A stretch of DNA of 63,741 nucleotides from Spirochaetales bacterium (GTDB taxonomy: Bacteria; Spirochaetota; Spirochaetia; JAIPGG01). The DNA is taken from contig JAIPGG010000005.1 of the NCBI GenBank assembly GCA_021736255.1, forward strand, positions 1-63,741. The letters are read 5' to 3'. The notes under the pieces were generated by a model. It had not been told where the DNA came from. It did no database searches and saw nothing but the letters and a program-made list of their open reading frames with translations. A program made the translations under genes and the position numbers. Below, one piece after another: positions 93-54,775 of the stretch (position 1 is the stretch's first letter; every line of letters begins with the position of its first letter).

Positions 93-509
93 TTATTCCC
101 CGATGATCTTAACGAGCACCTTTTTCTTGCGTCTGCCGTCAAACTCACCATAAAAGATCTGTTCCCAGGGGCCGAAATCCAGACGGCCCTCGGTTACGGC
201 AACAACCACTTCCCGGCCCATCACCTGGCGCTTCATGTGGGCGTCGGCATTGTCTTCCATGCCGTTGTGAGCGTACTGTTCGACCGGTTCGTGAGGAGCG
301 AGTTTTTCGAGCCATTGATCGTAGTCCCGATGAAGCCCCGGTTCATCGTCGTTGATGAAGATACTTGCTGTAATGTGCATGGCATTAACCAGTACGAGCC
401 CTTCCTGCACTCCGCTTTTTTCGACCAACTCGCGTACGGTTGGGGTGATATTGATGAACTCTCGTCGTGTTTTGGTATTGAACCACAGATACTCGGTTAA
501 TGATTTCAT
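93..509 (-). CDS. yjbQ: YjbQ/UPF0047 family protein (secondary thiamine-phosphate synthase family)
   Basis: HITASI, NADAH and [15 protein letters not shown] motifs; ATG at 509 chosen (promoter-like TTGAAT-18-TATACT immediately upstream). Confidence 0.9.
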
Positions 510-9862: not shown

Positions 9863-10459
9863 TCAGTTCTCCGGCTGCTGAGGGACCTTGTTGAGCTTGC
9901 TGATATCATAGCCCCGGGCCCGGGCCCGAGTAACCAGCATTTCATAGGTTTCCTCGTCCATCTCCGGCTGCCGGCCGAGAATCCAGAGGAAATTCGGTGA
10001 AGAACTCCCGATCAAGGCGTATTGGTAATTCTCCGTGTCGAGTTCCAGGATGAGGTAGTCCGACCAGAACCAGAGGAAAAAGCTGACCTGGAGCCAGCCC
10101 GGATTATCGGGATCGGGTACCCGTGCCCGCCCTTTGATAGCCTTTTTCTTTCCTTCGAAACTATCGGTGTATCCCTCGTTGACAACCCGGAGTTTTCCGT
10201 CGGACCGGAGGGTGTAGGTAGCCGTTACCCCAACCAGTTGCTTCTCGAAGAAGTGCGGATATCTGGCGATCTCGTACCATGTTCCTGTGAACCGCTCGAG
10301 ATCGACCTCTTCTACTGTATCGAGTTTCATGGTTTTTCCTTCGAAATTTGATCTTTCTTCCGTTGAACTGCAGGAGGTCGAAACGAGTCCTGCTGCAAGC
10401 AAGATGACGAGGACAGAAATGCTGATTAATACCGGATATTTGTTCGTTTTTCCATTCAT
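9863..10459 (-). CDS. blc: Bacterial lipocalin (Blc-like lipoprotein)
   Basis: VDLERFTGTWYEIARYPH (GxW), VTATYTL, YQYALIG, LWILGR; Cys-containing signal. Confidence 0.9.
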   Translation of the reverse strand: MNGKTNKYPVLISISVLVILLAAGLVSTSCSSTEERSNFEGKTMKLDTVEEVDLERFTGTWYEIARYPHFFEKQLVGVTATYTLRSDGKLRVVNEGYTDSFEGKKKAIKGRARVPDPDNPGWLQVSFFLWFWSDYLILELDTENYQYALIGSSSPNFLWILGRQPEMDEETYEMLVTRARARGYDISKLNKVPQQPEN

Positions 10460-10530: not shown

Positions 10531-11481
10531 TTGAAAATCGACGGGAAGAGCATTCGTCTGCCCTTCGTCTTCCTCGGAATCTTTCTGGGTTTCGGACTCT
10601 GGCGTTTTCTGGCTACCGGAGCTGCCTTCTACCTGCTCAACTTCGGATATTTGGGAACGGCAATCTCTTTGGGAATTTTCCTCGGCAACATTCTTCCCCG
10701 CCGGTTGAAGCCCTGGGGGCGGCGGGTCTCGCTTGTGATGGTCGGCTCGTACCTGCTCGGCTACGTCGGTTTTCGCCTGCATGAAAACCTGCAGATCGAG
10801 GGTTTCTGGTTCTATCTCTGGATGGGGGTGTTTGCCGGCGCCGCTCTCCATTATTTTCTTGCGAAAATCGCCGGACCCTTCTTTTTCGGACGCGGCTGGT
10901 GCGGTTGGGCCTGCTGGACGGCCATGTTCACCGACCTTTTGCCCTGGAAAAAACCCCGCTTCGGGCGGGTACGGAAACTGGGAATCCTTCGGTATCTGCA
11001 TTTTAGCGCTTCTCTCGGATTGGTTTTCTGGGTGATCTTTGGAAACGATGGCGGGATGGCGATTCCGCGGGGGCAAAGCGAGCTTTTGTGGCTTGGTGCG
11101 GGAAATGCGGCATATTATACAGCCGCCTTTGTTGCAGCAGCTGTTTTGAAGGACAATCGTGCCTTTTGCAAATATCTTTGCCCTGTTACCGTATTTCTCA
11201 AGGCGGGTACGAAACTGTCTCTGCTCAAGATTGCAATCGATAAACACAGCTGTGTCGACTGCGGGGTGTGTGAAGAGAACTGCCCTATGGATATCGCGCT
11301 GACTGCTTACAAGGATTCAGGACGAATCGGATCGACTGAGTGTATATTCTGTACGACCTGTGTAGATCTTTGCCCGGCCCGGGCGCTGAAGCCTTCTTTT
11401 GGTTTTAGCCCCCCGGCCCGGGAGTATCTGATGTACCGTGACAGGAATGGTGAAAGACGGGTGAAGCCCGGTCGGGTGTAA
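10531..11481 (+). CDS. Membrane 4Fe-4S ferredoxin-type protein (NapH/MauN-like)
   Basis: TM helices; CGWACW, FCKYLCP, CVDCGVCEENCP, CIFCTTCVDLCP; TTG start after GGAGG. Confidence 0.88.
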   Translation: MKIDGKSIRLPFVFLGIFLGFGLWRFLATGAAFYLLNFGYLGTAISLGIFLGNILPRRLKPWGRRVSLVMVGSYLLGYVGFRLHENLQIEGFWFYLWMGVFAGAALHYFLAKIAGPFFFGRGWCGWACWTAMFTDLLPWKKPRFGRVRKLGILRYLHFSASLGLVFWVIFGNDGGMAIPRGQSELLWLGAGNAAYYTAAFVAAAVLKDNRAFCKYLCPVTVFLKAGTKLSLLKIAIDKHSCVDCGVCEENCPMDIALTAYKDSGRIGSTECIFCTTCVDLCPARALKPSFGFSPPAREYLMYRDRNGERRVKPGRV

Positions 11482-11519
11482 TCGACCCCGACTTGTTTCC
11501 GGCTGAGTACGGCCTGCTG

Positions 11520-11581
11520 CGGCCCGCCCCGGCCGAGAGCGAGGAAGCTCGGTCGGTAAAACCCGGCCCGTCCCGGCCGAG
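11520..11581. repeat. Intergenic 18-bp direct repeat pair flanking a small hairpin
   Basis: CGGCCCGCCCCGGCCGAG (11520-11537) and CGGCCCGTCCCGGCCGAG (11564-11581); CCGAG...CTCGG stem 11533-11552. Confidence 0.6.
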
Positions 11582-11614
11582 CCGTATGAAAGCTATAAGC
11601 AAAAGGAGAGACGA

Positions 11615-11857
11615 ATGGAAAAGGTCCTTACATTGAACAACGAAATCGAAGCACAGCTGCTTTCCAGCCTGCTCAAGGAGGCGGGTGTGCCTCACTACAT
11701 GCACTCCTACCACGACTCGGCCTACGACGGGATCTTCCAGGTGCAATTCGGATGGGGGCATGTCGAATCCGAGCCCGAGTATGCCGAAGAGATCAAGGAT
11801 ATCTACAATTCCATGAAAAACACCGGCAGCGCAGAGGAAGGGCCTGAACCGGAGTAG
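11615..11857 (+). CDS. DUF2007 (putative signal-transducing, PII-like) small protein
   Basis: NEIEAQLLSSLLKEAGVPH...DSAYDGIFQ..GWGHV pattern; SD AGGAG. Confidence 0.75.
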   Translation: MEKVLTLNNEIEAQLLSSLLKEAGVPHYMHSYHDSAYDGIFQVQFGWGHVESEPEYAEEIKDIYNSMKNTGSAEEGPEPE

Positions 11858-11912
11858 ATGAAATGTGGTTCAAGATACGGCGTCTCCACGATCGGGGGCA
11901 GTAAAAAAGAGT

Positions 11913-11941
11913 TTGACAGCTGTCTTCGGTGGTGCTCTAAT
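11913..11941 (+). promoter_or_regulatory. sigma70 promoter of the duplicated PEGA/barrel cassette
   Basis: TTGACA-N17-TCTAAT with extended -10 TG; 20 nt before ATG 11962 with GGGGG SD-like run. Confidence 0.65.
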
Positions 11942-11961
11942 TAAGTAAAAGGGGGACGCCC

Positions 11962-13815
11962 ATGTCCTTTGCACACTGGAATCTAAGGCAACTGTTTCCT
12001 TTATGTGCTTTTCTCCTTGGGGTCTTGCTCCTATCTGCGTGCGGAAGCATGCCTGCTCCTGAAAATCCTCGCCAAAGTCTCTTTATTTTTTACTTAGAAT
12101 CCGGCATTGCAGAAAACCGGGAATCAACCGAGATCTCGGGACTCACTCTCGAAGGGGGAGACGGCTCCACGATAGAGATCGAGGGATCCCTCTCCGGCGA
12201 TGACGACGGTAAAGCAGTGTACCTCGATCTTTCAGCCGGTCCCTACACCCTCCGCGGCCTGCAAGGGCCGCCGGTAAGCTTCGATCTGCCTGCAGAGTCG
12301 GTTTTTCTTTTCCAGAAAAAGGCCGTTCCCGGCAGGGACGGGCCCGTGCTCCGGGATCTCAAGCCGGAAGACCGCAAGTGGGTTTCCGAAGACTGCGCCG
12401 ACATCATCGAGTTTACCAAGTGGTACGGGCGGAGTTTTGTGGGGTTCGGTCCGTTTACCCCGCGCTATACCCTGCAAAAGGCCCGCTACGAGTACCGAAT
12501 CGAGAGTACTCCGGCCGGGGCCGACGTAATCATCGATGATCAGAATTGGGGTTCCACCCCGCTTACCGCAGAGCTGGAGACAGGAAAGCATCTGCTGCGC
12601 CTCGAAAAGGCCGGTTTTGCTCCGGTACAGACATTTGTCGATGTAGAGGGAGCAGGAAAGCTCACCCTGGAGCTGAGCCGAATCGAAGGGCTTGAATCAG
12701 CCGAAGAGGAGACGGACCAGGCTTTTTCCCAGGACCGGTATACCCTTTTGGTAACACCCTTCGCTAATACCGGAGATGAATCCCAGGACAACCTGGAAAC
12801 GGTGTTTTCCGACGGAATCGCCTCGGGCCTCTACAAACGGGAGAATATCCGGGTGCTGCGGCTCGAAAGGGGCGAACTCAAGAACGAAGGGGAGGCATCG
12901 GCATTCGGCAAGGTTGGTCTCGATTTATCTCTCGCTTCGGCGAAGGGGGCCGAGCTCCTCGTTTCCGGGGCGTACAACGCCGATGAAGAGCTCTTTGTCC
13001 ATGCCGCCCTCTACGATGTCCGGACCGGGCAGGTCAAAACCAGCACCATGTACACCGGCGAGGCGGGACTTGCCATGTTCGACTCCATCGACGAGATGAC
13101 CGAAGAGTTCCTCGAGAATGTCGACCGGGTCCTGCCGGCGGTCGGAAGGGAGGTAATCGAGCAGGAACAGACGGTGAGTCAGGAGGTGATAAGCTACCAG
13201 AAAAAACTGACCGTCAAGCAGATTGCGGCGAACCGGAACGCACGACGCCATGCATTGAGTGTTTCAGTGAACTACAGCGGCAGTTTCGACACCGTGTATG
13301 CCCAGTCCGGCGACCCTGAGGACGAGATGAGCAGGGGCGATGTTTCGCTCGGGGCTTCTCTTTTATACGACTATCACATCTTCGATCCCATGCAATTAAC
13401 TGCTCTGTTTCTCGTGAGGTTTCAGGAGTTCAATGGTGATTCGCCGGTTGAACTCGAGGACACGGGCACGAACGACTATCTCCTGGCCGTCGGACCCCGG
13501 ATCTCGTTCCCCGGCAGGTCCGTTGATGTGTACATGGGAATGATGGCCCACGGCACATATGGAGATGCCTTCGATTTCTACGAGTGGGATATTACCTCGG
13601 TTATCAAGCGGGGTCCCTATATCTCCGCCGGTCTGACCCTCGATACGGGAATGAGGACCTATTTCCAGGAGCGTTTTTCCGATGTACCGTGGTTTATGGA
13701 TTTCGGGATGGCCTTTGATCCGATCTCGGTGCAATTCGACATCGGCGGCAACGAACCGATCGATTATATTTTTATGACCGGTAAATTCTACGCCGGATTC
13801 GGAAGGAGATTCTGA
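11962..13815 (+). CDS. Lipoprotein A1: PEGA domain + TolB-N/CsgG-like domain + C-terminal beta-barrel-like region
   Basis: Lipobox LLSAC; PEGA IESTPAGADVIID..WGSTPL...GKHLLRLEKAGF; LVTPFAN...GAELLVSGAY...AALYDVRTG; amphipathic strands ending GKFYAGFGRRF. Confidence 0.8.
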   Translation: MSFAHWNLRQLFPLCAFLLGVLLLSACGSMPAPENPRQSLFIFYLESGIAENRESTEISGLTLEGGDGSTIEIEGSLSGDDDGKAVYLDLSAGPYTLRGLQGPPVSFDLPAESVFLFQKKAVPGRDGPVLRDLKPEDRKWVSEDCADIIEFTKWYGRSFVGFGPFTPRYTLQKARYEYRIESTPAGADVIIDDQNWGSTPLTAELETGKHLLRLEKAGFAPVQTFVDVEGAGKLTLELSRIEGLESAEEETDQAFSQDRYTLLVTPFANTGDESQDNLETVFSDGIASGLYKRENIRVLRLERGELKNEGEASAFGKVGLDLSLASAKGAELLVSGAYNADEELFVHAALYDVRTGQVKTSTMYTGEAGLAMFDSIDEMTEEFLENVDRVLPAVGREVIEQEQTVSQEVISYQKKLTVKQIAANRNARRHALSVSVNYSGSFDTVYAQSGDPEDEMSRGDVSLGASLLYDYHIFDPMQLTALFLVRFQEFNGDSPVELEDTGTNDYLLAVGPRISFPGRSVDVYMGMMAHGTYGDAFDFYEWDITSVIKRGPYISAGLTLDTGMRTYFQERFSDVPWFMDFGMAFDPISVQFDIGGNEPIDYIFMTGKFYAGFGRRF

Positions 13816-14858
13816 TGAAACGGCTCACTACTGTACTGTTTTGTATCGGTTTCGCCGCCGCCTCCCTCCTCTTGCCGATTGATCTCTATGCGCAAACGGA
13901 AAATGCTGAAGGAGCATCGGGATCCGGAGCGGCAAAAATTCCCCGGCGTGTTCTGGTTCAATATACCCCTTCACCGGATGCTGCAGTGGAGGATGAGGAA
14001 TATCTTGCCTGGGTCCCCGAGTTCGTGTACACCGCCGTTTCCTCTCGCCGGCCGGTGGTTCGGGTTCAGGAACAGGAGCGAGCTCACAACCGCCTGCAGG
14101 TGAATGTCGATGGAGGCTCTGAAGTATATAGTCTCGAACTCCTGCTGGAAGAAAAGCAAGAAGAACAATGGATAGAACGGTTCCGGGACTCCACTGAATT
14201 CAGGGGGGACCGGGAAGATCTACGCCGCTTTATCGAGGACTGTGCCGATACCATGTCGCAGCACCTCCCCCTGGTGGAACCGGAAATCCGGATCAATGTT
14301 CGGGTGCAGGACGAGGGGGTGCGAAGAATGGTTGAACAGGTGGATTTTGCCGACAGGCTGGACACCCCCTTCGAGCTCACGGCTTGGGCAGTCAATTTAA
14401 CTACCGACTTTTCCTATGATGTCGGTGTATACCGTTTTAATGTTGTTCCCCTCACCCTGGATGCCGCATGGTTTCCCGGGCGGGAACACGGTCTGGTGGC
14501 CCAAATGTTCCTGGACTATGTGGACCTCTTCGGGGACGGGGCCGGGGATTTTGCTGTACTTCCCGGTTTGGGCTACCGCTTCCGCCTCCTGGACCGGATT
14601 TCGGCCGCCTTTTCCATAGGTCTCTCGGCAGGCGCCGGAATCGGTGAACAGGTGCAGTTTATGAGCCTGTTCTGGGTGTACCCCTCGGTTACCTGGAATA
14701 TCACCGAGCGGCTCGGCCTTTCCTACCGATTTGCCAGCTATGTTGACCCGGTGCTTTTGGTCGGGGAAGGAGACGGCCCTCAGACGGACTATGATGGTTT
14801 TTTCCTTCAGTACGTTTCTATAGGCTTTGTGTGGCGGCTCGGACAGCCGCGGCAATAG
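13815..14858 (+). CDS. Secreted protein B1 with C-terminal beta-barrel-like region
   Basis: Signal peptide; alternating strands (LDAAWFP, PGLGYRFRL, YVSIGFVWRL); TGATG coupling with A1. Confidence 0.75.
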   Translation: MKRLTTVLFCIGFAAASLLLPIDLYAQTENAEGASGSGAAKIPRRVLVQYTPSPDAAVEDEEYLAWVPEFVYTAVSSRRPVVRVQEQERAHNRLQVNVDGGSEVYSLELLLEEKQEEQWIERFRDSTEFRGDREDLRRFIEDCADTMSQHLPLVEPEIRINVRVQDEGVRRMVEQVDFADRLDTPFELTAWAVNLTTDFSYDVGVYRFNVVPLTLDAAWFPGREHGLVAQMFLDYVDLFGDGAGDFAVLPGLGYRFRLLDRISAAFSIGLSAGAGIGEQVQFMSLFWVYPSVTWNITERLGLSYRFASYVDPVLLVGEGDGPQTDYDGFFLQYVSIGFVWRLGQPRQ

Positions 14859-14868
14859 GGAGAGTGCC

Positions 14869-16734
14869 ATGTCTTTTCGCCTCAGAAACTGGAGCCGCCT
14901 GTTTCCCGCCGTTCTCGTGGTTTCCTGGATTCTGTTCCTTGCAGCCTGCGGAAGCATGCCCGCACCCGATACTGATCAGGATAGCCTGTTTATCCTCTTC
15001 ATTGATGCCGCCGCCGCCCGGGCTGCCGAGGCCGAAAGCGAAGGGCCCGGGACGGTTTCCGGCCTTATATTGGAAGAAGCGGGAGGGGAGAGATTCGAGC
15101 TCGATACTGCTGTACCCGCCGGTTCCGGAAAAAAGGCGCTGTATCTGAACCTTGATGCCGGCAGCTATACCCTTCGAGGCCAGGCCGGGCCGCCGGTACG
15201 CTTTGATCTGCCGCCTGGATCGGTGTTCCTTTTTCAGAAAAAGGTTGTTCCCGGAAGGAACGATCCCGGGCTGCGTGATCTTCGGCCGGAAGACAAAAAG
15301 TGGGTTTCCGCCGACTGCAGTGACTTTATCGAGTTCACCAGCTGGTACGGGCGAAACTTCGTCGGCTTTGGCCCTTTTACCCCTCGCTACACCCTGCAGG
15401 AGACACGCTACGAGTATCGGATCGAAAGCACTCCGGCCGGTGCAAACGTAATTATCGACGATCAAAGCTGGGGAACCACCCCCCTCACTGCAGAGCTGGA
15501 GACAGGAAAGCATCTGCTGCGCTTGGAAATGGCTGGATTCGCTGCGGTGCAGACCTTTATCGATGTGGAAGGAGCGGGAAAGCTCAGCCTGGAGCTTGAG
15601 AAAAAGGAGGCAGCGACCGCAACTGAACGGGAAGATGCTGCCTCCGGCATAGATCGCTATACGCTGCTGGTAACGCCCTTCGGCAACACCGGCGAAGCTG
15701 CCCGGGACAATCTGCGAACGGTTTTTTCCGACGGAATCGCCTCCGGCTTGTACAAACGGGAAAATCTCCAAGTCCTCCGGCTCGAAGCGGAAGAACGCCG
15801 GCAGCTTCCGGTACATCCGGCTGAACCCGGTTTCTCTCTTGCTTCGGCCAAAGGGGCGGAGCTCCTCGTATCCGGTTCCTACAATGCAGACGAGAAACTC
15901 TTTGTTCATGCAGCTCTCTACGACGTTCGAACCGGGCAGGTAAAAACCAGCACCATGTACACCGGTGAGGCGGGGCTTGCCATGTTTGACTCGATCGACG
16001 AGATGACAAGCGGTTTCCTGGAGAACGTGGACCGGGTGCTTCCTGCAGTAGGCAGGGAGGTGATCGAACAGGAACAGACCGTGAGTCAGGAAGTGGTAAG
16101 CTATCAGAAAAAGCTCACGATTAAACAGATCGCGGCCAACCGGAATTCGCGGCGTCATTCTCTGAGCGTCTTTGCGGAATACGGGGGCACCATGGACAAT
16201 GTCTACAACCAGGCGGGTGAAGTGGACGGCGGCCGGGCTCATTTCGGCTATGGGCCTGTGCTCAATTATGACTACCACCTTTTCGATCCCCTTCAGCTCG
16301 CTGCCGGGTTTTCAGTAATCTTTTACGAGGCCGAAATAGATTCTCCAGTAGCCATCGATGACCTGAGCACCAACGACTACACCCTCTTTCTCGGTCCCAA
16401 GGTCTCTTTTCCGGGAAAATCGATCGATGTCTATCTTTCCCTGCTTGCTCACGGCAGGTATTCCGACGCCTTCGACTTTTACGATGAAGGGCTTGCTTCG
16501 GTCATTGAGCGCGGACCCTACGTTGCTGCAGGAATGAGCCTTGATACGGGGATTCGAATCTATTTTCAGCAGCGGTTTTCCGATGTGCCCTGGTTCATGG
16601 ATTTCGGGATGACCTTCGATCCGTTTTCAGTACAGTTCGATGTTGGACCACCTGACGATGCCGGCGGCAGTGCACCGGTAGATTTTGTCAACTGGGGCGG
16701 TAAGATGCATCTGGGTTTTGGAAGGAGACTCTGA
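14869..16734 (+). CDS. Lipoprotein A2, paralog of A1
   Basis: Lipobox LFLAAC; same domain order; LFVHAALYDVRTGQVKTSTMYTGEAGLAMFDSIDEMT identical to A1. Confidence 0.8.
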   Translation: MSFRLRNWSRLFPAVLVVSWILFLAACGSMPAPDTDQDSLFILFIDAAAARAAEAESEGPGTVSGLILEEAGGERFELDTAVPAGSGKKALYLNLDAGSYTLRGQAGPPVRFDLPPGSVFLFQKKVVPGRNDPGLRDLRPEDKKWVSADCSDFIEFTSWYGRNFVGFGPFTPRYTLQETRYEYRIESTPAGANVIIDDQSWGTTPLTAELETGKHLLRLEMAGFAAVQTFIDVEGAGKLSLELEKKEAATATEREDAASGIDRYTLLVTPFGNTGEAARDNLRTVFSDGIASGLYKRENLQVLRLEAEERRQLPVHPAEPGFSLASAKGAELLVSGSYNADEKLFVHAALYDVRTGQVKTSTMYTGEAGLAMFDSIDEMTSGFLENVDRVLPAVGREVIEQEQTVSQEVVSYQKKLTIKQIAANRNSRRHSLSVFAEYGGTMDNVYNQAGEVDGGRAHFGYGPVLNYDYHLFDPLQLAAGFSVIFYEAEIDSPVAIDDLSTNDYTLFLGPKVSFPGKSIDVYLSLLAHGRYSDAFDFYDEGLASVIERGPYVAAGMSLDTGIRIYFQQRFSDVPWFMDFGMTFDPFSVQFDVGPPDDAGGSAPVDFVNWGGKMHLGFGRRL

Positions 16735-17888
16735 TGAAGCATCTTACTATGAATGTACCGGCGATCCGTTTTTTTATTGCCTTCATTTCTATCGCTTTTC
16801 TTTTTGTTTTCTTTCAAGCCGCGCCGATAGGGGCCCAGGAGAGCGCAGCCGGCGGGACCGGAACGGCCAATGGAGCCGAAAAAAGTGACACCCAAAAGAG
16901 TGCAGCCGGCGGGACCGCCGAATCGGAAAGAATCCCTCGCCGTCTTCTGCTTATCTATTCAGCCTCCGGACCGGTTGCGCCGGATGACGAGACATTTCTG
17001 TCTTCATTGGATGAATATGTGTTTACCACGCTTTCTTCCCGGCAGCCGGTAGTCAGGGTGGAAAACCCTGAACGGGCACATAACCGCTTGTCGGTTCATG
17101 TAGCAGGCGGGACCGATACATATACCGTCGAGGTGGTTCTCGAAGAAAAACAGCGGCAAAGCGGGGCTGAGGCCGGGGCTGAGATGTGGAGCGAGCGTTT
17201 TGTAGATGAAACGGAATTTCGGGGTGATCAGGAGGCCCTGCAGCGCTTCATCGAGTCGACGGCAGAGGAAATGTCCGAATACCTCGGTATGGTGAAGCCG
17301 GAGATCCGCATCAACGTCCGGGTCAAAGATGAGGGAACCCGAAGGATGGTCGAGGAGATTGATTTTGCCGACAGACTGAACACTCCCTTCGAGCTCACTG
17401 CCTGGTTATTTCATATGACCTCGGATTTTACTTTCGGGGATGGCATGGAAATTGGGTATCGGTTCAACGTGCTGCCCGTTAGTCTCGATGCCGCCTGGTT
17501 TCCTTCCCGGGAGCACGGTTTGGTCGGCACTCTGTTTTACGATTATCTCGATGCTACCGGAGACGGGCTGGAGAATTCCGTGATTGTACCGGGGCTCGGC
17601 TACCGGTTTCGCCTGCTCGACCGTATATCGGCATCATTCAGCATCGGCTATTCCGCCGGAGCGGCCCTCGGCGAGCAGATGAGGTTTATGAATTTTTTCT
17701 GGATGTTTCCGGCGGTGACCTGGAACATCACCGAGCAGCTCGGGCTTGCCTACCGGCTTGGTTTTTATGTCGATCCGGTGCTCATGCTTCCTGATATAGG
17801 AAATTATGAACCGGCGGCAGCCGATTCCATGCTCATTCAGTACGTTTCCCTGGGTTTCGTTTATCATCTGGGAGAGCCACGGAATTAA
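16734..17888 (+). CDS. Secreted protein B2, paralog of B1
   Basis: ERAHNRL, TEFRGD, PEIRINVRV, DFADRL.TPFELTAW shared with B1; TGATG coupling with A2. Confidence 0.75.
   Translation: MKHLTMNVPAIRFFIAFISIAFLFVFFQAAPIGAQESAAGGTGTANGAEKSDTQKSAAGGTAESERIPRRLLLIYSASGPVAPDDETFLSSLDEYVFTTLSSRQPVVRVENPERAHNRLSVHVAGGTDTYTVEVVLEEKQRQSGAEAGAEMWSERFVDETEFRGDQEALQRFIESTAEEMSEYLGMVKPEIRINVRVKDEGTRRMVEEIDFADRLNTPFELTAWLFHMTSDFTFGDGMEIGYRFNVLPVSLDAAWFPSREHGLVGTLFYDYLDATGDGLENSVIVPGLGYRFRLLDRISASFSIGYSAGAALGEQMRFMNFFWMFPAVTWNITEQLGLAYRLGFYVDPVLMLPDIGNYEPAAADSMLIQYVSLGFVYHLGEPRN
16840..16917. repeat. 21-bp direct repeat in the N-terminal insertion of B2
   Basis: AGAG(C/T)GCAGCCGGCGGGACCG at 16840-16860 and 16897-16917 (SAAGGT x2). 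Confidence 0.7.
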
Positions 17889-17944
17889 CTTGTGGTATCA
17901 GCCTTGTTTCTGATTATCGTCTGTTTCCAGCTTAGGCGCCGGGC

Positions 17945-18652
17945 TCAGATTCCCAGGTACGCCCTGCGCACCTCGTCGCTTTTCATCAGGTTTTCGCAGG
18001 TGTCGGCCATGGCGATGGTTCCGGTCTCCATGACGTATCCTCGGTCGGCTACCTTGAGTGCCATGTTGGCGTTCTGTTCGACCAGGAGGATGGTGGTTCC
18101 GCTCTCTTTGTTGAACTTCCCGATGATTTCGAAGATCTTCTGGACGATGATCGGTGCCAGGCCGAGGGAGGGCTCGTCCAGCAAGAGCAGCTTTGGCCGG
18201 GCCATGATTGCCCGGGAAATGGCGAGCATCTGCTGCTCGCCTCCGGAGAGGGTGCCCCCCTGCTGGTTTTTCCGTTCTGCGAGTATGGGGAACATGGAGT
18301 AAATATATTCGAAGTCTTCCCTGATACCCTCGGGGTCTTTCCGGAGAAAAGCCCCCATATCGAGGTTCTCCTGTACGGTCAGATAAGGGAAGATCCGTCT
18401 GCCCTCGGGTACCTGGATGATTCCCTTGGAAACAATCGAATCCGGTTCTATCCCCATCAGGGATTCGTCCCGGAAGATAATCTGACCCGATCTCGGGGGG
18501 ACGATGCCGCTGATGGACATGAGGGTAGTGGTTTTTCCGGCGCCGTTGGCGCCGATTACGGTGATGATCTCCCCCTCGTTTATCTCGAAGCTAATCCCTT
18601 TGAGCGCCTGGATATTCCCGTAATAGGTCTGCAGGTTGTCTACTTTAAGCAT
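17945..18652 (-). CDS. livF: Branched-chain amino acid ABC transporter ATP-binding protein
   Basis: GANGAGKT, LSGGEQQMLAISRA, LLDEPSLGLAP. Confidence 0.93.
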   Translation of the reverse strand: MLKVDNLQTYYGNIQALKGISFEINEGEIITVIGANGAGKTTTLMSISGIVPPRSGQIIFRDESLMGIEPDSIVSKGIIQVPEGRRIFPYLTVQENLDMGAFLRKDPEGIREDFEYIYSMFPILAERKNQQGGTLSGGEQQMLAISRAIMARPKLLLLDEPSLGLAPIIVQKIFEIIGKFNKESGTTILLVEQNANMALKVADRGYVMETGTIAMADTCENLMKSDEVRRAYLGI

Positions 18653-51615: not shown

Positions 51616-54603
51616 TTATCGGAGGCTTTCAGGCGGTATCACGAGCATCTCTCCATCATCGCTTCCGACGATAAAGCGCTGCTGGCTAAAGACCGGGCGG
51701 GTAGTTATCTCCGCTCGAACCGTGAGGTTCTTCCTGATCGAACCGGTGGAAGCATCGGCAGCGGTAAGGTAGCGCCCCCCTGAGCCGTAGTAGATATCTC
51801 CGTTGCGGTACAGTGGAGGAGATGTAGCTCCGTTTATCGGGGTAAACAGGTTCCTCCCGTTTTCCAGGTTGAGACCGTAAATCGTACCGTCGGCATAGAT
51901 ATATACTCCCTTCCCGCCTGCAACCAGGTCCTCGAACACGCTCGCGCTGCCTGAATCAGAGAGCGGACGCTGCCAGAGTACGCGTTCAGAATTCAGGTCG
52001 ACACAGACCACGGTCCCCTTTCTGCCGGCGAAAATCGCCTTGCCGCCTGTTATAAGCGGAGCAAGGGCGACCGGCTGAACGGCATCGGTATCCAGGCGAA
52101 AGATTGTATTCCCCGAGTCGTAATCCATCAGCATGAACTCGCCCTGCTGGTTCGCGACGGCAATATTTCCGCCGGAGACCGCCGGTGTCATCCGGGAACC
52201 GCCGGGGATGGAGATGGTTTTTATGGTATTGCCGTTTGAAAGGCTGATAACCTCGATGCTTTCGTTGGTCGGGAGAAGGGCCGTGTTGCCGTCGTAATCA
52301 ACCAGGTGCCGGCCGAACAGGTGAGAAGAGGCGCCGTCCAGATTCCGCCGGGCCTTGATCTGCCCCCCGGCTGCATCCACCAGCACCAGTTCTTTGGCTC
52401 CCGAAAAGGCTACGGTACTGCCCATGACCACCGGTTTCGAGTTCTCGTTGGAGGTGTTGCCGGTGCGGACCGACCAGTACTCCTGTCCCGTGCTTTGATA
52501 GGCCGACAGCACTCCGTTTTCCGAAACACTGATCAGACGGTCGCCGGAACCTGCTGCAAGACCGACCATCGTATTCGACGAAGCGGTCTGAAAACGGCGC
52601 TCCACCGGCAGCCGTTCCAGGCGGACTGTGGTGGTATTATTCCCGCCGCGGCGGACTCGCAGGGTCTGTGATTTTTGACGGAAGCCGTAGCTTCGTACCG
52701 TTATATTGAGCTGCTGCCCTGCTTTGAAAACATCCGAATAGCTTCCGCGCCCTACTACCCGGCCGTTGATCAGGATTTCCGCATTATTGGGAACCGTGCT
52801 TATCCGAACAGGCTCTTCGTATACCGCCTCTTCGAGGGTGATATCCCGGCTGTTGTTGCCGTCGCGAGTAACTTCGAGTTCAAACTCCTGGGGCAGGTAG
52901 TTCTCCCGGCGGGCTGTGAAAGAGAGATTCGTCCCCGCCTGGTAGGTGCCGCTGAAGCTTCCCCTGCCGACGACTTCATTGTTCAAAAGGATTTCCGCAT
53001 CAGAGGGGGTTACCGATACCTCTACATCCTCGCGGTAGACGATTTCCTCGAGGTTGACCCGGTAGGAGATCGGTGCCGCAGACTCGACGTCGATTTGCAG
53101 TTCCTCTTCCTGGTAGCCTTCCCGGCTTACCCGGACATCGAGGTTTGTGCCCACCTCGTACTCTCCGTTGTAGTTTCCCGTACCCTGGGATTCTCCGTTG
53201 ATGAAAACCTCGGCATCCCGGGGTCTGACATTGATGCTGACCTGTTTTGTTTCAGGTTCCGGTTCCGGGACTCGTTCGAGCCGGACGCGGTATCGTTTGC
53301 CGTTTGCTGCAGCCGGGACGGTAATATTGAGTTCCCTGGTTTTGTATCCCTCTTTCGAGATCGAGAAATCAAGGGTTTCCCCCTCTTCGAAAATACCGGA
53401 GAACCGGCCCCGCCCGACGGAAACGCCGTTAAAGGTAATTGCGGCATCTCGTGGATTGGTTTCGAGGCTTATCTTGCTCAGAATAGGTTGTGGCTCTTCC
53501 GGAGCCGCTGCTTCTTCTTCTGCTGCCGTCTTTTCTTCTCCCTCGGCAACCTTCGGCTTGGCAGGCGTTGCTATGGCAAGGAGGCGCATATTCTCTATAT
53601 TCTTGAGTTCTTTCGAACTTTCCGCGCTCATGTTTTTTGGGGGTGCGATAGCCGTTTGAACAGAGGTGTTGGCCTCTTCGACTGCCGAGTTCAATTCATC
53701 GAGGAGCCGGCGTCGTTCGCTTTCGGTGATTCGAGGTCTCTCCGGTTCGACCGCTTCCTCTGCGGCTTCCCCTTCTGCTGTCTTTTCCGGCTTCGGTTTT
53801 GCCGGAGCAACCTTATTGACGACTTCTTCCACCTTCTTTACCGAGGCTGCGGTATCCTGCAGACTCGTTTCCTCGACTTCGATCTCTTGGTTGGCCTTTA
53901 CGACCGGCGCGGATTTCTCGATTTTCTCGATAGATTCGAGGATTTCATTCTCTCCGGCTTCTTCAGCCCGGTCCTTCAGTTCGTCCACATCGGCGTTTCC
54001 AGGCATAATCGAAACCTCGCCTTCCTGGACGGCAAGCTTGGTCTTCTTCTGCTGATCGACGGTAACCCCGAATTCAGTTCCACGCACACCACAGACGGCG
54101 GTTTCCGTTTTGACTTTGAACTTTTCATTCCCGGCAAGCTTTTGAACCTTCGTCAGGACGGAGCCGACTTCCATCCCCATCTTCACGTCGGTTTCTCCCG
54201 GAGCGAACTGTATTTTCTCCATAGCGATCTCGGTATTCTCCTGAACGCGGCAGACCGCCGTCTCGCCGAACTGGAGTTCTACGTATGATCCTTCGTAAAC
54301 AATGAGTGTATCTTCTTGTTCGAGAAACTCCCCGATCTCTGCGTAATACGATTCTCCCTGGTGAACAATATCGGCTTCCCCTGAAATGAAGGTGATGAGG
54401 GCCTGAGTGTATTCGGGAAGCTCGACCGGATCGAGTTCTTCCTCTTCTACAGCTTCGGCGACTGCCTCTTCAACAGGCTCTGTTTCGGGCTCGGGTGCTT
54501 CTGCTTGCTTCTCGCAGGAAAGTACGGGAAGAAACAGGAACATCAGAACCAGCGGCAGGAAAAAAAATACGTTCCCCTTTTTCGATTTATTCCTCATTTT
54601 CAT
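51616..54603 (-). CDS. Lipoprotein with FecR domain, acidic helical linker, 4 PEGA-like repeats and PQQ-like beta-propeller
   Basis: VLSC lipobox; KTETAVCGVRGTEF; repeats (T/V).P.(D/N)A.(I/V).(F/I/L)NG; propeller blades (LSAYQSTGQEYW, VCVDLNSERVLW); SD AGGAGG before 54603. Confidence 0.85.
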   Translation of the reverse strand: MKMRNKSKKGNVFFFLPLVLMFLFLPVLSCEKQAEAPEPETEPVEEAVAEAVEEEELDPVELPEYTQALITFISGEADIVHQGESYYAEIGEFLEQEDTLIVYEGSYVELQFGETAVCRVQENTEIAMEKIQFAPGETDVKMGMEVGSVLTKVQKLAGNEKFKVKTETAVCGVRGTEFGVTVDQQKKTKLAVQEGEVSIMPGNADVDELKDRAEEAGENEILESIEKIEKSAPVVKANQEIEVEETSLQDTAASVKKVEEVVNKVAPAKPKPEKTAEGEAAEEAVEPERPRITESERRRLLDELNSAVEEANTSVQTAIAPPKNMSAESSKELKNIENMRLLAIATPAKPKVAEGEEKTAAEEEAAAPEEPQPILSKISLETNPRDAAITFNGVSVGRGRFSGIFEEGETLDFSISKEGYKTRELNITVPAAANGKRYRVRLERVPEPEPETKQVSINVRPRDAEVFINGESQGTGNYNGEYEVGTNLDVRVSREGYQEEELQIDVESAAPISYRVNLEEIVYREDVEVSVTPSDAEILLNNEVVGRGSFSGTYQAGTNLSFTARRENYLPQEFELEVTRDGNNSRDITLEEAVYEEPVRISTVPNNAEILINGRVVGRGSYSDVFKAGQQLNITVRSYGFRQKSQTLRVRRGGNNTTTVRLERLPVERRFQTASSNTMVGLAAGSGDRLISVSENGVLSAYQSTGQEYWSVRTGNTSNENSKPVVMGSTVAFSGAKELVLVDAAGGQIKARRNLDGASSHLFGRHLVDYDGNTALLPTNESIEVISLSNGNTIKTISIPGGSRMTPAVSGGNIAVANQQGEFMLMDYDSGNTIFRLDTDAVQPVALAPLITGGKAIFAGRKGTVVCVDLNSERVLWQRPLSDSGSASVFEDLVAGGKGVYIYADGTIYGLNLENGRNLFTPINGATSPPLYRNGDIYYGSGGRYLTAADASTGSIRKNLTVRAEITTRPVFSQQRFIVGSDDGEMLVIPPESLR

Positions 54604-54775
54604 GGTTCTCCTCCTGACCAACAACCCTTTGCTTACCATTATATACCCCTTTTTTTAACCTTTCTATGTTTTTCCGCTTTTCGCTCTCCGGATTTGCCGC
54701 TGCGGGCCGATATTTGTATATTTACCTATAAATCTACCGTATCAATCATACAATAAGCCAGGAGAGGTATTCGCC

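Follow-up and report, generated by a model that had tools for sequence, protein, structure and literature searches.

The window analysed here, 63,741 nt of contig JAIPGG010000005.1 (assembly GCA_021736255.1, from a Spirochaetales bacterium; all window coordinates refer to this stretch), carries two tandem copies of a two-gene cassette in which a lipoprotein gene, A, is directly followed by the gene for a secreted partner, B. We found A-B to be a real, conserved and well-supported new protein pair, with no sign of a variable surface receptor. Judged from the way the two genes are kept together, the evidence that A and B work together is strong, and we see about an even chance that the two proteins are subunits of a lineage-restricted complex in the outer membrane which serves environmental Spirochaetia as a periplasm-facing scaffold or tether. 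The structural reading given in an initial annotation of this DNA turned out to be largely right, while its reading in terms of surface specificity did not.

The source metagenome-assembled genome (MAG; 2.66 Mb, 133 contigs, 82% complete) is the sole member of its own order in the GTDB genome set searched, and a genome-wide search located only two A-B cassettes in it, both in the window. The four genes A1-B1-A2-B2 are densely packed on one strand between 11962 and 17888 (Table 1), as expected from the annotation of a tandem duplicate. A1 and A2 share 65% of their residues along the full length, and their alignment begins at residue 1. B1 and B2 share 56%, B2 having a longer low-complexity stretch behind its signal peptide. 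The identical TGATG reported at each A-B junction is present, so that stop and start codons share one nucleotide at both. The ribosome-binding site of B (GGAAGGAG) sits at both junctions within the codons for the conserved C-terminal GxGRR[FL] of A, and the 10-nt spacer between B1 and A2 contains GGGAGAG.

The linkage of A and B extends well beyond this genome. In a sample of 401 genomes of the class, with presence defined by a full-length A and a strong B match, about 33 genomes carry A, 33 carry B and 32 of the ∼34 positive genomes carry both (counts not corrected for phylogeny). The two exceptions are incomplete genomes, G727 with A only (74% complete) and G586 with B only (68% complete), and in G447 the pair is divergent but still adjacent. 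The pair thus occurs in ∼8% of the sampled Spirochaetia genomes, spread across ∼20 GTDB families. Its carriers are uncultured Spirochaetia, Spirochaetales or Spirochaetaceae MAGs with sample names that point to fen, SPRUCE and microbial mat. A B-profile search of a separate 400-genome sample of the phylum, in which the listed genomes are mostly 99% complete, returned no match beyond the source genome itself. A word-indexed search gave ∼18 A homologs and one or two B homologs outside the window, and an exhaustive profile search among 1.84 billion representatives brought up 92 clusters of B (50% identity level), nearly all of 330-400 aa.

In a survey of gene neighbourhoods, all loci that could be judged (∼27) had B directly 3′ of A and in the same orientation. 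The two genes overlap at 25 of 26 distinct A-B junctions, 22 times as ATGA or GTGA and three times as TGATG or TAATG, the 26th being a frameshifted fragment; the family has therefore conserved translational coupling. The claim that the pair is an uncharacterised, obligate two-component system was borne out to the extent that the genes are obligately linked and that no characterised family matches them. One could still argue that A and B are independent outer-membrane proteins (OMPs) that are merely co-transcribed and form no complex, which is in keeping with the prediction that each protein folds and anchors alone. Near-universal adjacency, near-perfect co-occurrence, a stop/start overlap kept across ∼20 GTDB families, joint duplication and congruent trees nevertheless make up a pattern typical of obligate partners, and we consider independence improbable.

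An apparent A-B fusion at locus L013 of genome G596 (CAWAHW010000001.1, 5518-8814; a 1099-aa frame) was rejected: it results from a 1-nt frameshift near the C-terminus of A, whose true end, ...LGYGVRL*, lies in frame +1, and the frameshift is an assembly error or marks a pseudogene. Two other loci, G545:C186:3376-5938 and G532:C23:2589-5064, have weak matches to only the TolB_N-like domain and linker of A (444 and 436 aa), each adjacent to a match to the N-terminal half of B (413 and 404 aa), and may represent a more distant, shorter version of the pair.

Protein A begins with a signal peptide that, as initially annotated, ends in a lipobox ([LVI][ASTG][GAS]C); it reads LSAC in A1 and LAAC in A2. 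The lipobox is present in all 23 extracted A proteins and its cysteine is invariant in 14 aligned homologs; by this sequence criterion A is a bacterial lipoprotein. The predicted PEGA domain is clearly recognised by Pfam (PF08308; E 1.6e-14 and 54 bits in A1, 1.8e-13 and 50.6 bits in A2, gathering cut-off 20.8). In contrast, the alpha/beta domain that follows scores below the TolB_N cut-off of 22.4 bits (PF04052; 12.3 bits in A1, 16.7-20.2 in A2). When this segment was scanned alone in 20 members of the A family, 18 matched TolB_N (best E 1.4e-7) and no other Pfam family recurred, which we read as fold-level kinship with TolB_N. Of the ‘TolB-N/CsgG-like’ label in the initial annotation, the first part finds support at the level of fold, also from the match to TolB described below, and the second is unsupported, as no CsgG match at E ≤ 1 was found in A, in B or in the 20 segments. 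PEGA domains are not confined to A in the source genome: its 10 PEGA matches are spread over ∼7 proteins, and one 510-aa frame contains two of these domains (C1:22150-22503).

The AlphaFold2 (AF2) model of A1, built on 14 sequences, has a mean predicted local distance difference test score (pLDDT) of 68 and a predicted template modelling score (pTM) of 0.38. Its C-terminal ∼190 aa, annotated as amphipathic strands of a barrel, model as an eight-stranded barrel with block-mean pLDDT mostly at 80-92 in the strands and 57-70 in the loops, and the last residue of the barrel is hydrophobic or aromatic. Foldseek comparison with the PDB matched this barrel to Ail, NspA, OmpA-TM, OmpX and OmpW at template modelling (TM) scores of 0.55-0.65, and the alpha/beta domain to TolB and FlgT.

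Protein B has the annotated layout of signal peptide, alpha/beta domain, linker and A-like strands, and its model is the better one (B1, 57 sequences; mean pLDDT 89, pTM 0.63). Unlike A, all extracted B proteins have an ordinary cleavable signal peptide, ending near AQ[ED]. The B1 barrel matches NspA (TM 0.70, root-mean-square deviation 3.7 Å) and OmpA-TM (TM 0.61), so that the barrel matches of A and B together span TM 0.55-0.70, with a Foldseek probability of 1.0. By sequence, B has no credible Pfam match (OMP_b-brl appears in one of 57 B members, at E 0.02), neither protein matches an NCBIfam model, and PDB sequence searches with profiles of A, of B and of the alpha/beta domain gave nothing significant. 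The C-termini of both proteins model as membrane barrels, A and B are linked in other genomes, and the pair matches none of the characterised families compared, so that the three findings named as refuting the initial annotation did not materialise.

The kinship between the two proteins was overlooked in the initial annotation. A profile-profile alignment with hhalign joins A 277-609 to B 52-366 (probability 90%, E 1.7e-6) and spans the alpha/beta domain, the linker and the entire barrel, including an LPxVxPE-like motif common to the two linkers (A 393-429, B 149-185). Because of this alignment we identify B as distantly paralogous to the C-terminal half of protein A. Equivalently, A can be viewed as a B-like module that is extended N-terminally by a lipid anchor, an Ig-like domain and PEGA.

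The fold matches also bear on a second explanation, in which A and B form a transport or secretion device whose barrels, singly or as an oligomer, conduct a hydrophobic small molecule, as in OmpW and AlkL, or a polymer, as in CsgG and FapF, with the TolB_N-like domains as a vestibule. OmpW, OprG, AlkL and FapF are indeed among the matches, TolB_N-like domains form the periplasmic part of CsgG and of ring-forming lipoproteins, and both the A1 and B1 models place a helix immediately before the barrel. The best matches, however, are closed eight-stranded anchors (NspA at the TM score given above, and OmpA-TM), neither CsgG nor FapF gives a sequence signal, and no substrate, ATPase or polymer-synthesis gene is conserved beside the pair. 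We regard a transport role as unlikely.

Maximum-likelihood trees join A1 with A2 and B1 with B2 as sister pairs, each with 100/100 support, and the A and B trees have their major clades in common; it was thus the entire cassette that was duplicated within this lineage. The rate of synonymous substitution (dS) between the copies is saturated in most windows. A 37-aa block noted as identical despite synonymous changes (A1 344-380) holds 12 synonymous codon differences, and a second identical block of 27 aa (383-409) holds 13. The duplication is thus old, and the blocks have been kept by purifying selection; recent gene conversion or an assembly artefact as their source was rejected on the basis of these differences and the saturated dS. 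A tandem A-B-A-B arrangement is also found in another Spirochaetales MAG (locus L007, G557:C30, CAZXMO010000030.1, 3027-8717), where the A tree does not clearly join the two copies as sisters; they may stem from a separate or older duplication. Genomes G439, G513, G697, G722 and G732 have two to four cassette copies each, with the two pairs of G439 on different contigs.

The periplasmic parts had been described as almost invariant between the copies. This is the case for the PEGA domain of A (90% identity; the reported nine differences in 71 aa were reproduced for windows 165-235 to 168-238) and for the second half of its TolB_N-like domain together with the linker (92-100%), but not for the Ig-like domain of A (52%) or the alpha/beta domain of B (56%). 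Within the barrels, the periplasmic turns are near-invariant (DP, PGRS/PGKS, FQERFSDVP, LDR, ITER) and indels are confined to the predicted outer loops L1 and L4, which fits the topology of an OMP. The annotated divergence of the barrel loops with indels holds for the indels, yet the strands of A (56% identity) are as diverged as its loops (60%).

From this divergence the initial annotation had concluded that the pair was expanded for diversified surface specificity, that is, as a surface-exposed receptor or adhesin complex. The position of the indels in predicted extracellular loops, the adhesins or invasins among the fold neighbours (Ail, NspA, OpcA, OmpX) and the repeated duplication of the cassette, in tandem in G557 and in multiple copies in the genomes listed above, speak for this explanation. 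Set against them, the predicted surface loops are short (3-18 residues), the greatest divergence is periplasmic (the Ig-like domain, at 32% in its most diverged part, and the linkers), and the features best conserved across the family are periplasmic as well. A sliding dN/dS analysis found no window clearly above 1, a weak test since synonymous sites are saturated. Only one window (A 296-325) comes near 1; it corresponds to a periplasmic loop in the TolB_N-like domain, modelled with low confidence. As the strands of A are no better kept than its loops and that sole window is periplasmic, the pattern is unlike surface-epitope diversification, and we find a receptor or adhesin distinctly unlikely.

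By clustering the neighbours of 31 A-B loci, we detected a further lipoprotein gene, C, whose linkage to A-B is new here and had been overlooked. Besides C, no neighbour is conserved among these loci, the other clusters being generic (e.g. ABC ATPases). Members of the C family are lipoproteins of 750-1050 aa with a FecR domain, one to five PEGA-like repeats and a C-terminal, BamB-like PQQ_2 beta-propeller. At least 10 of the 31 loci, from several clades, have C beside A-B in the same orientation, in the order C-A-B or A-B-C, and at locus L004 the C stop codon overlaps the A start by 4 nt. The copy in the window has a LipL45-like FecR domain and about five PEGA-like repeats (Pfam PQQ_2 4e-21, PEGA 6e-16, FecR 1e-12), and tblastn aligned it over 1009 aa at 34% identity with the neighbour gene at L073; a second copy lies on contig C65 of the source genome (1259-3460). 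Its FecR part matches models of Leptospira LipL45, Lsa33 and Lsa19 below threshold. A strong C match is present in 32 of 33 A-positive genomes in comparison with ∼110 of 401 overall (again not corrected for phylogeny). C is thus the broader family, with A-B occurring only where C exists.

The propeller of C raises the alternative that A and B are accessories of OMP or lipoprotein biogenesis, forming with C a lineage-specific module associated with BAM or Lol. C has a PQQ_2/BamB-type propeller and is genetically linked to A-B, and an Omp85 gene lies 6 kb from one A-B locus. This Omp85 neighbour is limited to that one locus, however, and C scores far below the BamB equivalog models (TIGR03300 58.9 bits against a cut-off of 285; PRK11138 48.5 against 423) while exceeding that of the general PQQ_2 model (76 bits, cut-off 27.6); PQQ-like propellers are generic interaction modules. 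The presence of the pair in only ∼8% of the sampled Spirochaetia genomes also argues against a core biogenesis role. We assign this alternative a low probability.

We favour the scaffold or tether complex introduced above, which could be built as follows. Both subunits contain one ancestral module, which consists of a periplasmic TolB_N-like domain, a conserved, extended linker that includes a short helix, and a modelled eight-stranded barrel of the OmpA/NspA type at the C-terminus, interpreted here as a membrane anchor and not as a pore; ahead of this module, A has a predicted N-terminal lipid anchor, an Ig-like sandwich and PEGA. Translational coupling of the two genes implies near 1:1 synthesis. 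The subunits would pair through their paralogous TolB_N-like domains and the conserved linkers, giving a pseudo-symmetric heteromer, either AB or a ring of AB units, just beneath the outer membrane. The PEGA and Ig-like domains would be turned towards the periplasm, forming a scaffold or tether there that probably serves C, with which the complex probably works in many lineages. In the source genome, the ancient tandem duplication would have produced two co-diverged complexes, A1B1 and A2B2. Also in favour of this reading, a TolB_N search of the source genome gave no canonical match besides A2 itself.

Several points weigh against this proposal. The evidence for interaction between A and B is genetic, and the co-occurrence counts behind it are not phylogeny-corrected. 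The A1 model draws on 14 sequences, with the overall scores given above (mean pLDDT 68, pTM 0.38). That the barrel is closed was concluded from the fold search instead of from coordinates, and the linker of A that is treated as an interface is a low-confidence stretch in that model. C is far commoner than A-B and in the source genome lies 34 kb away on the opposite strand, so its link to the pair may be loose. The source genome also encodes five OmpA-family peptidoglycan-binding proteins, so that a further tether is not obviously needed. Finally, neither TolB_N-like nor PEGA domains have a single known activity, which makes ‘scaffold or tether’ a weak functional claim.

A bolder version, which we think has only a slim chance of being correct, is that A, B and C constitute a spirochaete-specific envelope-stabilising machine, a Tol-Pal system in split form with TolB_N-like domains on the A and B barrels and the beta-propeller on the separate lipoprotein C. 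A might then be trans-periplasmic, with its lipid in the inner membrane, and set the membrane spacing.

Table 1. Features of the A-B cassettes and of gene C in the window, with the identity between the two cassette copies. ORF, open reading frame
Feature	Position (nt)	Strand	Residues or length (aa)	Basis or remark	Identity between copies
Promoter-like site	11913-11941	+		TTGACA, 17 nt, (TGc)TCTAAT; ∼20 nt 5′ of A1 start codon	
A1	11962-13815	+	617	ORF; lipoprotein	
A1 signal peptide and lipobox	12040-12042 (Cys27)	+		Sequence	41% (signal peptide)
A1 Ig-like beta-sandwich		+	38-132	AF2 model	52% overall; 32% over aa 31-87
A1 two short helices		+	Between Ig-like sandwich and PEGA	AF2 model	79% (helical part)
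A1 PEGA	12484-12672	+	175-237	Pfam, AF2 model	90%
A linker			241-258		33%
A1 TolB_N-like alpha/beta domain	12739-13131	+	260-390	AF2 model, Foldseek, family Pfam matches	78%
A1 conserved linker and helix		+	393-429	AF2: low-confidence stretch 393-416, short helix 418-425	92%
A1 8-stranded beta-barrel	13249-13809	+	430-616	AF2 model, Foldseek	57%
A1/B1 junction TGATG	13811-13817	+		1-nt stop/start overlap; read from sequence	
B1	13815-14858	+	347	ORF; secreted partner	
B1 signal peptide		+	Cleavage near AQ, ∼26	Sequence	
B1 TolB_N-like alpha/beta domain		+	44-148	AF2: five strands, two helices	56%
B1 linker and helix		+	149-185	AF2: helix 167-181	73%
B1 8-stranded beta-barrel	14370-14840	+	186-342	AF2, Foldseek	60%
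A2	14869-16734	+	621	ORF, counted from ATG; domain order as A1	
A2/B2 junction TGATG	16730-16736	+		Arrangement same as A1/B1	
B2	16734-17888	+	384	ORF	
Gene C	51616-54639	-	∼995-1007	Lipoprotein; ORF, Pfam, tblastn	

The cassette had been placed behind one good sigma70 promoter. The site 5′ of A1 has a perfect -35 element (TTGACA, 11913-11918) and a 17-nt spacer, but its -10 element, TCTAAT, deviates from the consensus by the missing A at position 2, and for this reason a consensus promoter scan of 11400-18100 called no promoter. Between it and the A1 start lies a GGGGGA ribosome-binding site. The promoter is plausible but putative. After B2, no convincing intrinsic terminator was found (fold z-score 0.27), and a convergent gene follows at a distance of 56 nt. 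Upstream of A1, a 104-nt spacer separates the cassette from a gene for an 80-aa DUF2007 ‘signal transducing’ protein (11615-11857, +), preceded by one for a 316-aa membrane protein with a 4Fe-4S dicluster domain (10531-11481, +); neither gene is conserved beside A-B in other loci. A 198-aa ORF farther upstream (9863-10459, -) has a lipobox-like N-terminus, LVSTSC, and appears lipocalin-like by eye.

Spirochaete OMPs are few, poorly known and hard to find, and A-B adds a well-defined two-gene family for which databases have no model in the case of B and only a PEGA label in the case of A. Its design is unusual in that two paralogous subunits each combine a small barrel anchor with a TolB_N-like periplasmic domain and one of them is also lipidated. 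If the scaffold or tether role is true, the pair would bear on how spirochaetes hold their fragile outer membrane and would offer a clean model for the origin of a hetero-oligomeric OMP by duplication and domain accretion. In addition, the link to C gives a possible partner to a large, unexplained FecR-PEGA-propeller family, whose FecR part is related to Leptospira LipL45. A literature search returned no description of the A-B pair, and a paper on TolA/TonB evolution makes no mention of spirochaetes.

Among known systems, OmpA-TM, NspA, Ail, OmpX and OmpW have the same eight strands and short conserved periplasmic turns as the A and B barrels in our models, although A and B fall in no OMP Pfam family by sequence. 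Barrels of the OmpA-TM, OmpX and NspA class are anchors, not channels. In comparison with OmpA, the domain order is reversed, the barrel being C-terminal to the periplasmic domain, and the periplasmic part is TolB_N-like instead of the peptidoglycan-binding OmpA_C. The alpha/beta domain of A resembles the N-terminal domain of TolB and FlgT in its modelled fold, but no match to the PD40 beta-propeller was found in A or B, whose C-terminal domains model as barrels, and the two proteins are therefore not TolB. They also differ from CsgG, as each A and B chain models its own closed barrel, whereas in the CsgG family a transmembrane hairpin is contributed to an oligomeric one. LpoB gave no match, and FlgO matched one of the 20 alpha/beta segments at a non-significant E of 0.16. 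TolB_N-like folds, as in TolB, LpoB, CsgG, FlgO and FlgT, typically serve beneath the outer membrane as periplasmic modules for interaction or ring formation. The FlgO-FlgP and FlgP-FlgQ operons of Vibrio and Campylobacter resemble A-B in encoding a lipoprotein and an outer-membrane partner; these proteins have TolB_N-like folds and assemble beneath the outer membrane into structures that face the periplasm. A-B is not an FlgO/FlgP pair: spirochaetal flagella are periplasmic, and no flagellar genes are among the recurring neighbours of the A-B loci.

A ‘PEGA domain-containing protein’ of the TP0923 type in Treponema pallidum, listed as a predicted beta-barrel OMP (PMC13749626), resembles A in being a spirochaetal protein with PEGA and a predicted C-terminal barrel. 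We rejected it as a member of the A family because PEGA is all that the two have in common. The protein compared is a 340-aa homolog, apparently of the TP0923 type, at L050 (751-1773, -) in G102, a genome of the same class that consists of one 1.1-Mb contig. It has an N-terminal PEGA and a beta-rich C-terminus but neither a TolB_N-like domain nor a B-like neighbour, and its kinship with A ends at PEGA (hhalign probability 0.8%).

The combination of a lipid anchor with a C-terminal barrel in one chain, which the initial annotation considered unusual, is uncommon but has precedents in the OprM-type outer-membrane factors, the lipidated autotransporter NalP and CsgG. Similar layouts are those of Treponema Tpr/MOSP and the OmpM tethers of Terrabacteria, which likewise place a C-terminal barrel after an N-terminal periplasmic domain; both are bipartite designs of periplasmic domain and outer-membrane barrel. 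The Pfam matches listed for A and B at E ≤ 1, and the families listed for 57 B members, include neither MOSP_N or MOSP_C nor SLH, so that the pair is not a MOSP/Tpr protein, and in contrast to MOSP and OmpM the A-B barrels are smaller and the subunits form a hetero-paralogous pair, one of them lipidated. A-B thus falls in the broad kind of outer-membrane barrels with a periplasmic domain, but both its composition and its form as a pair of hetero-paralogous genes are new.

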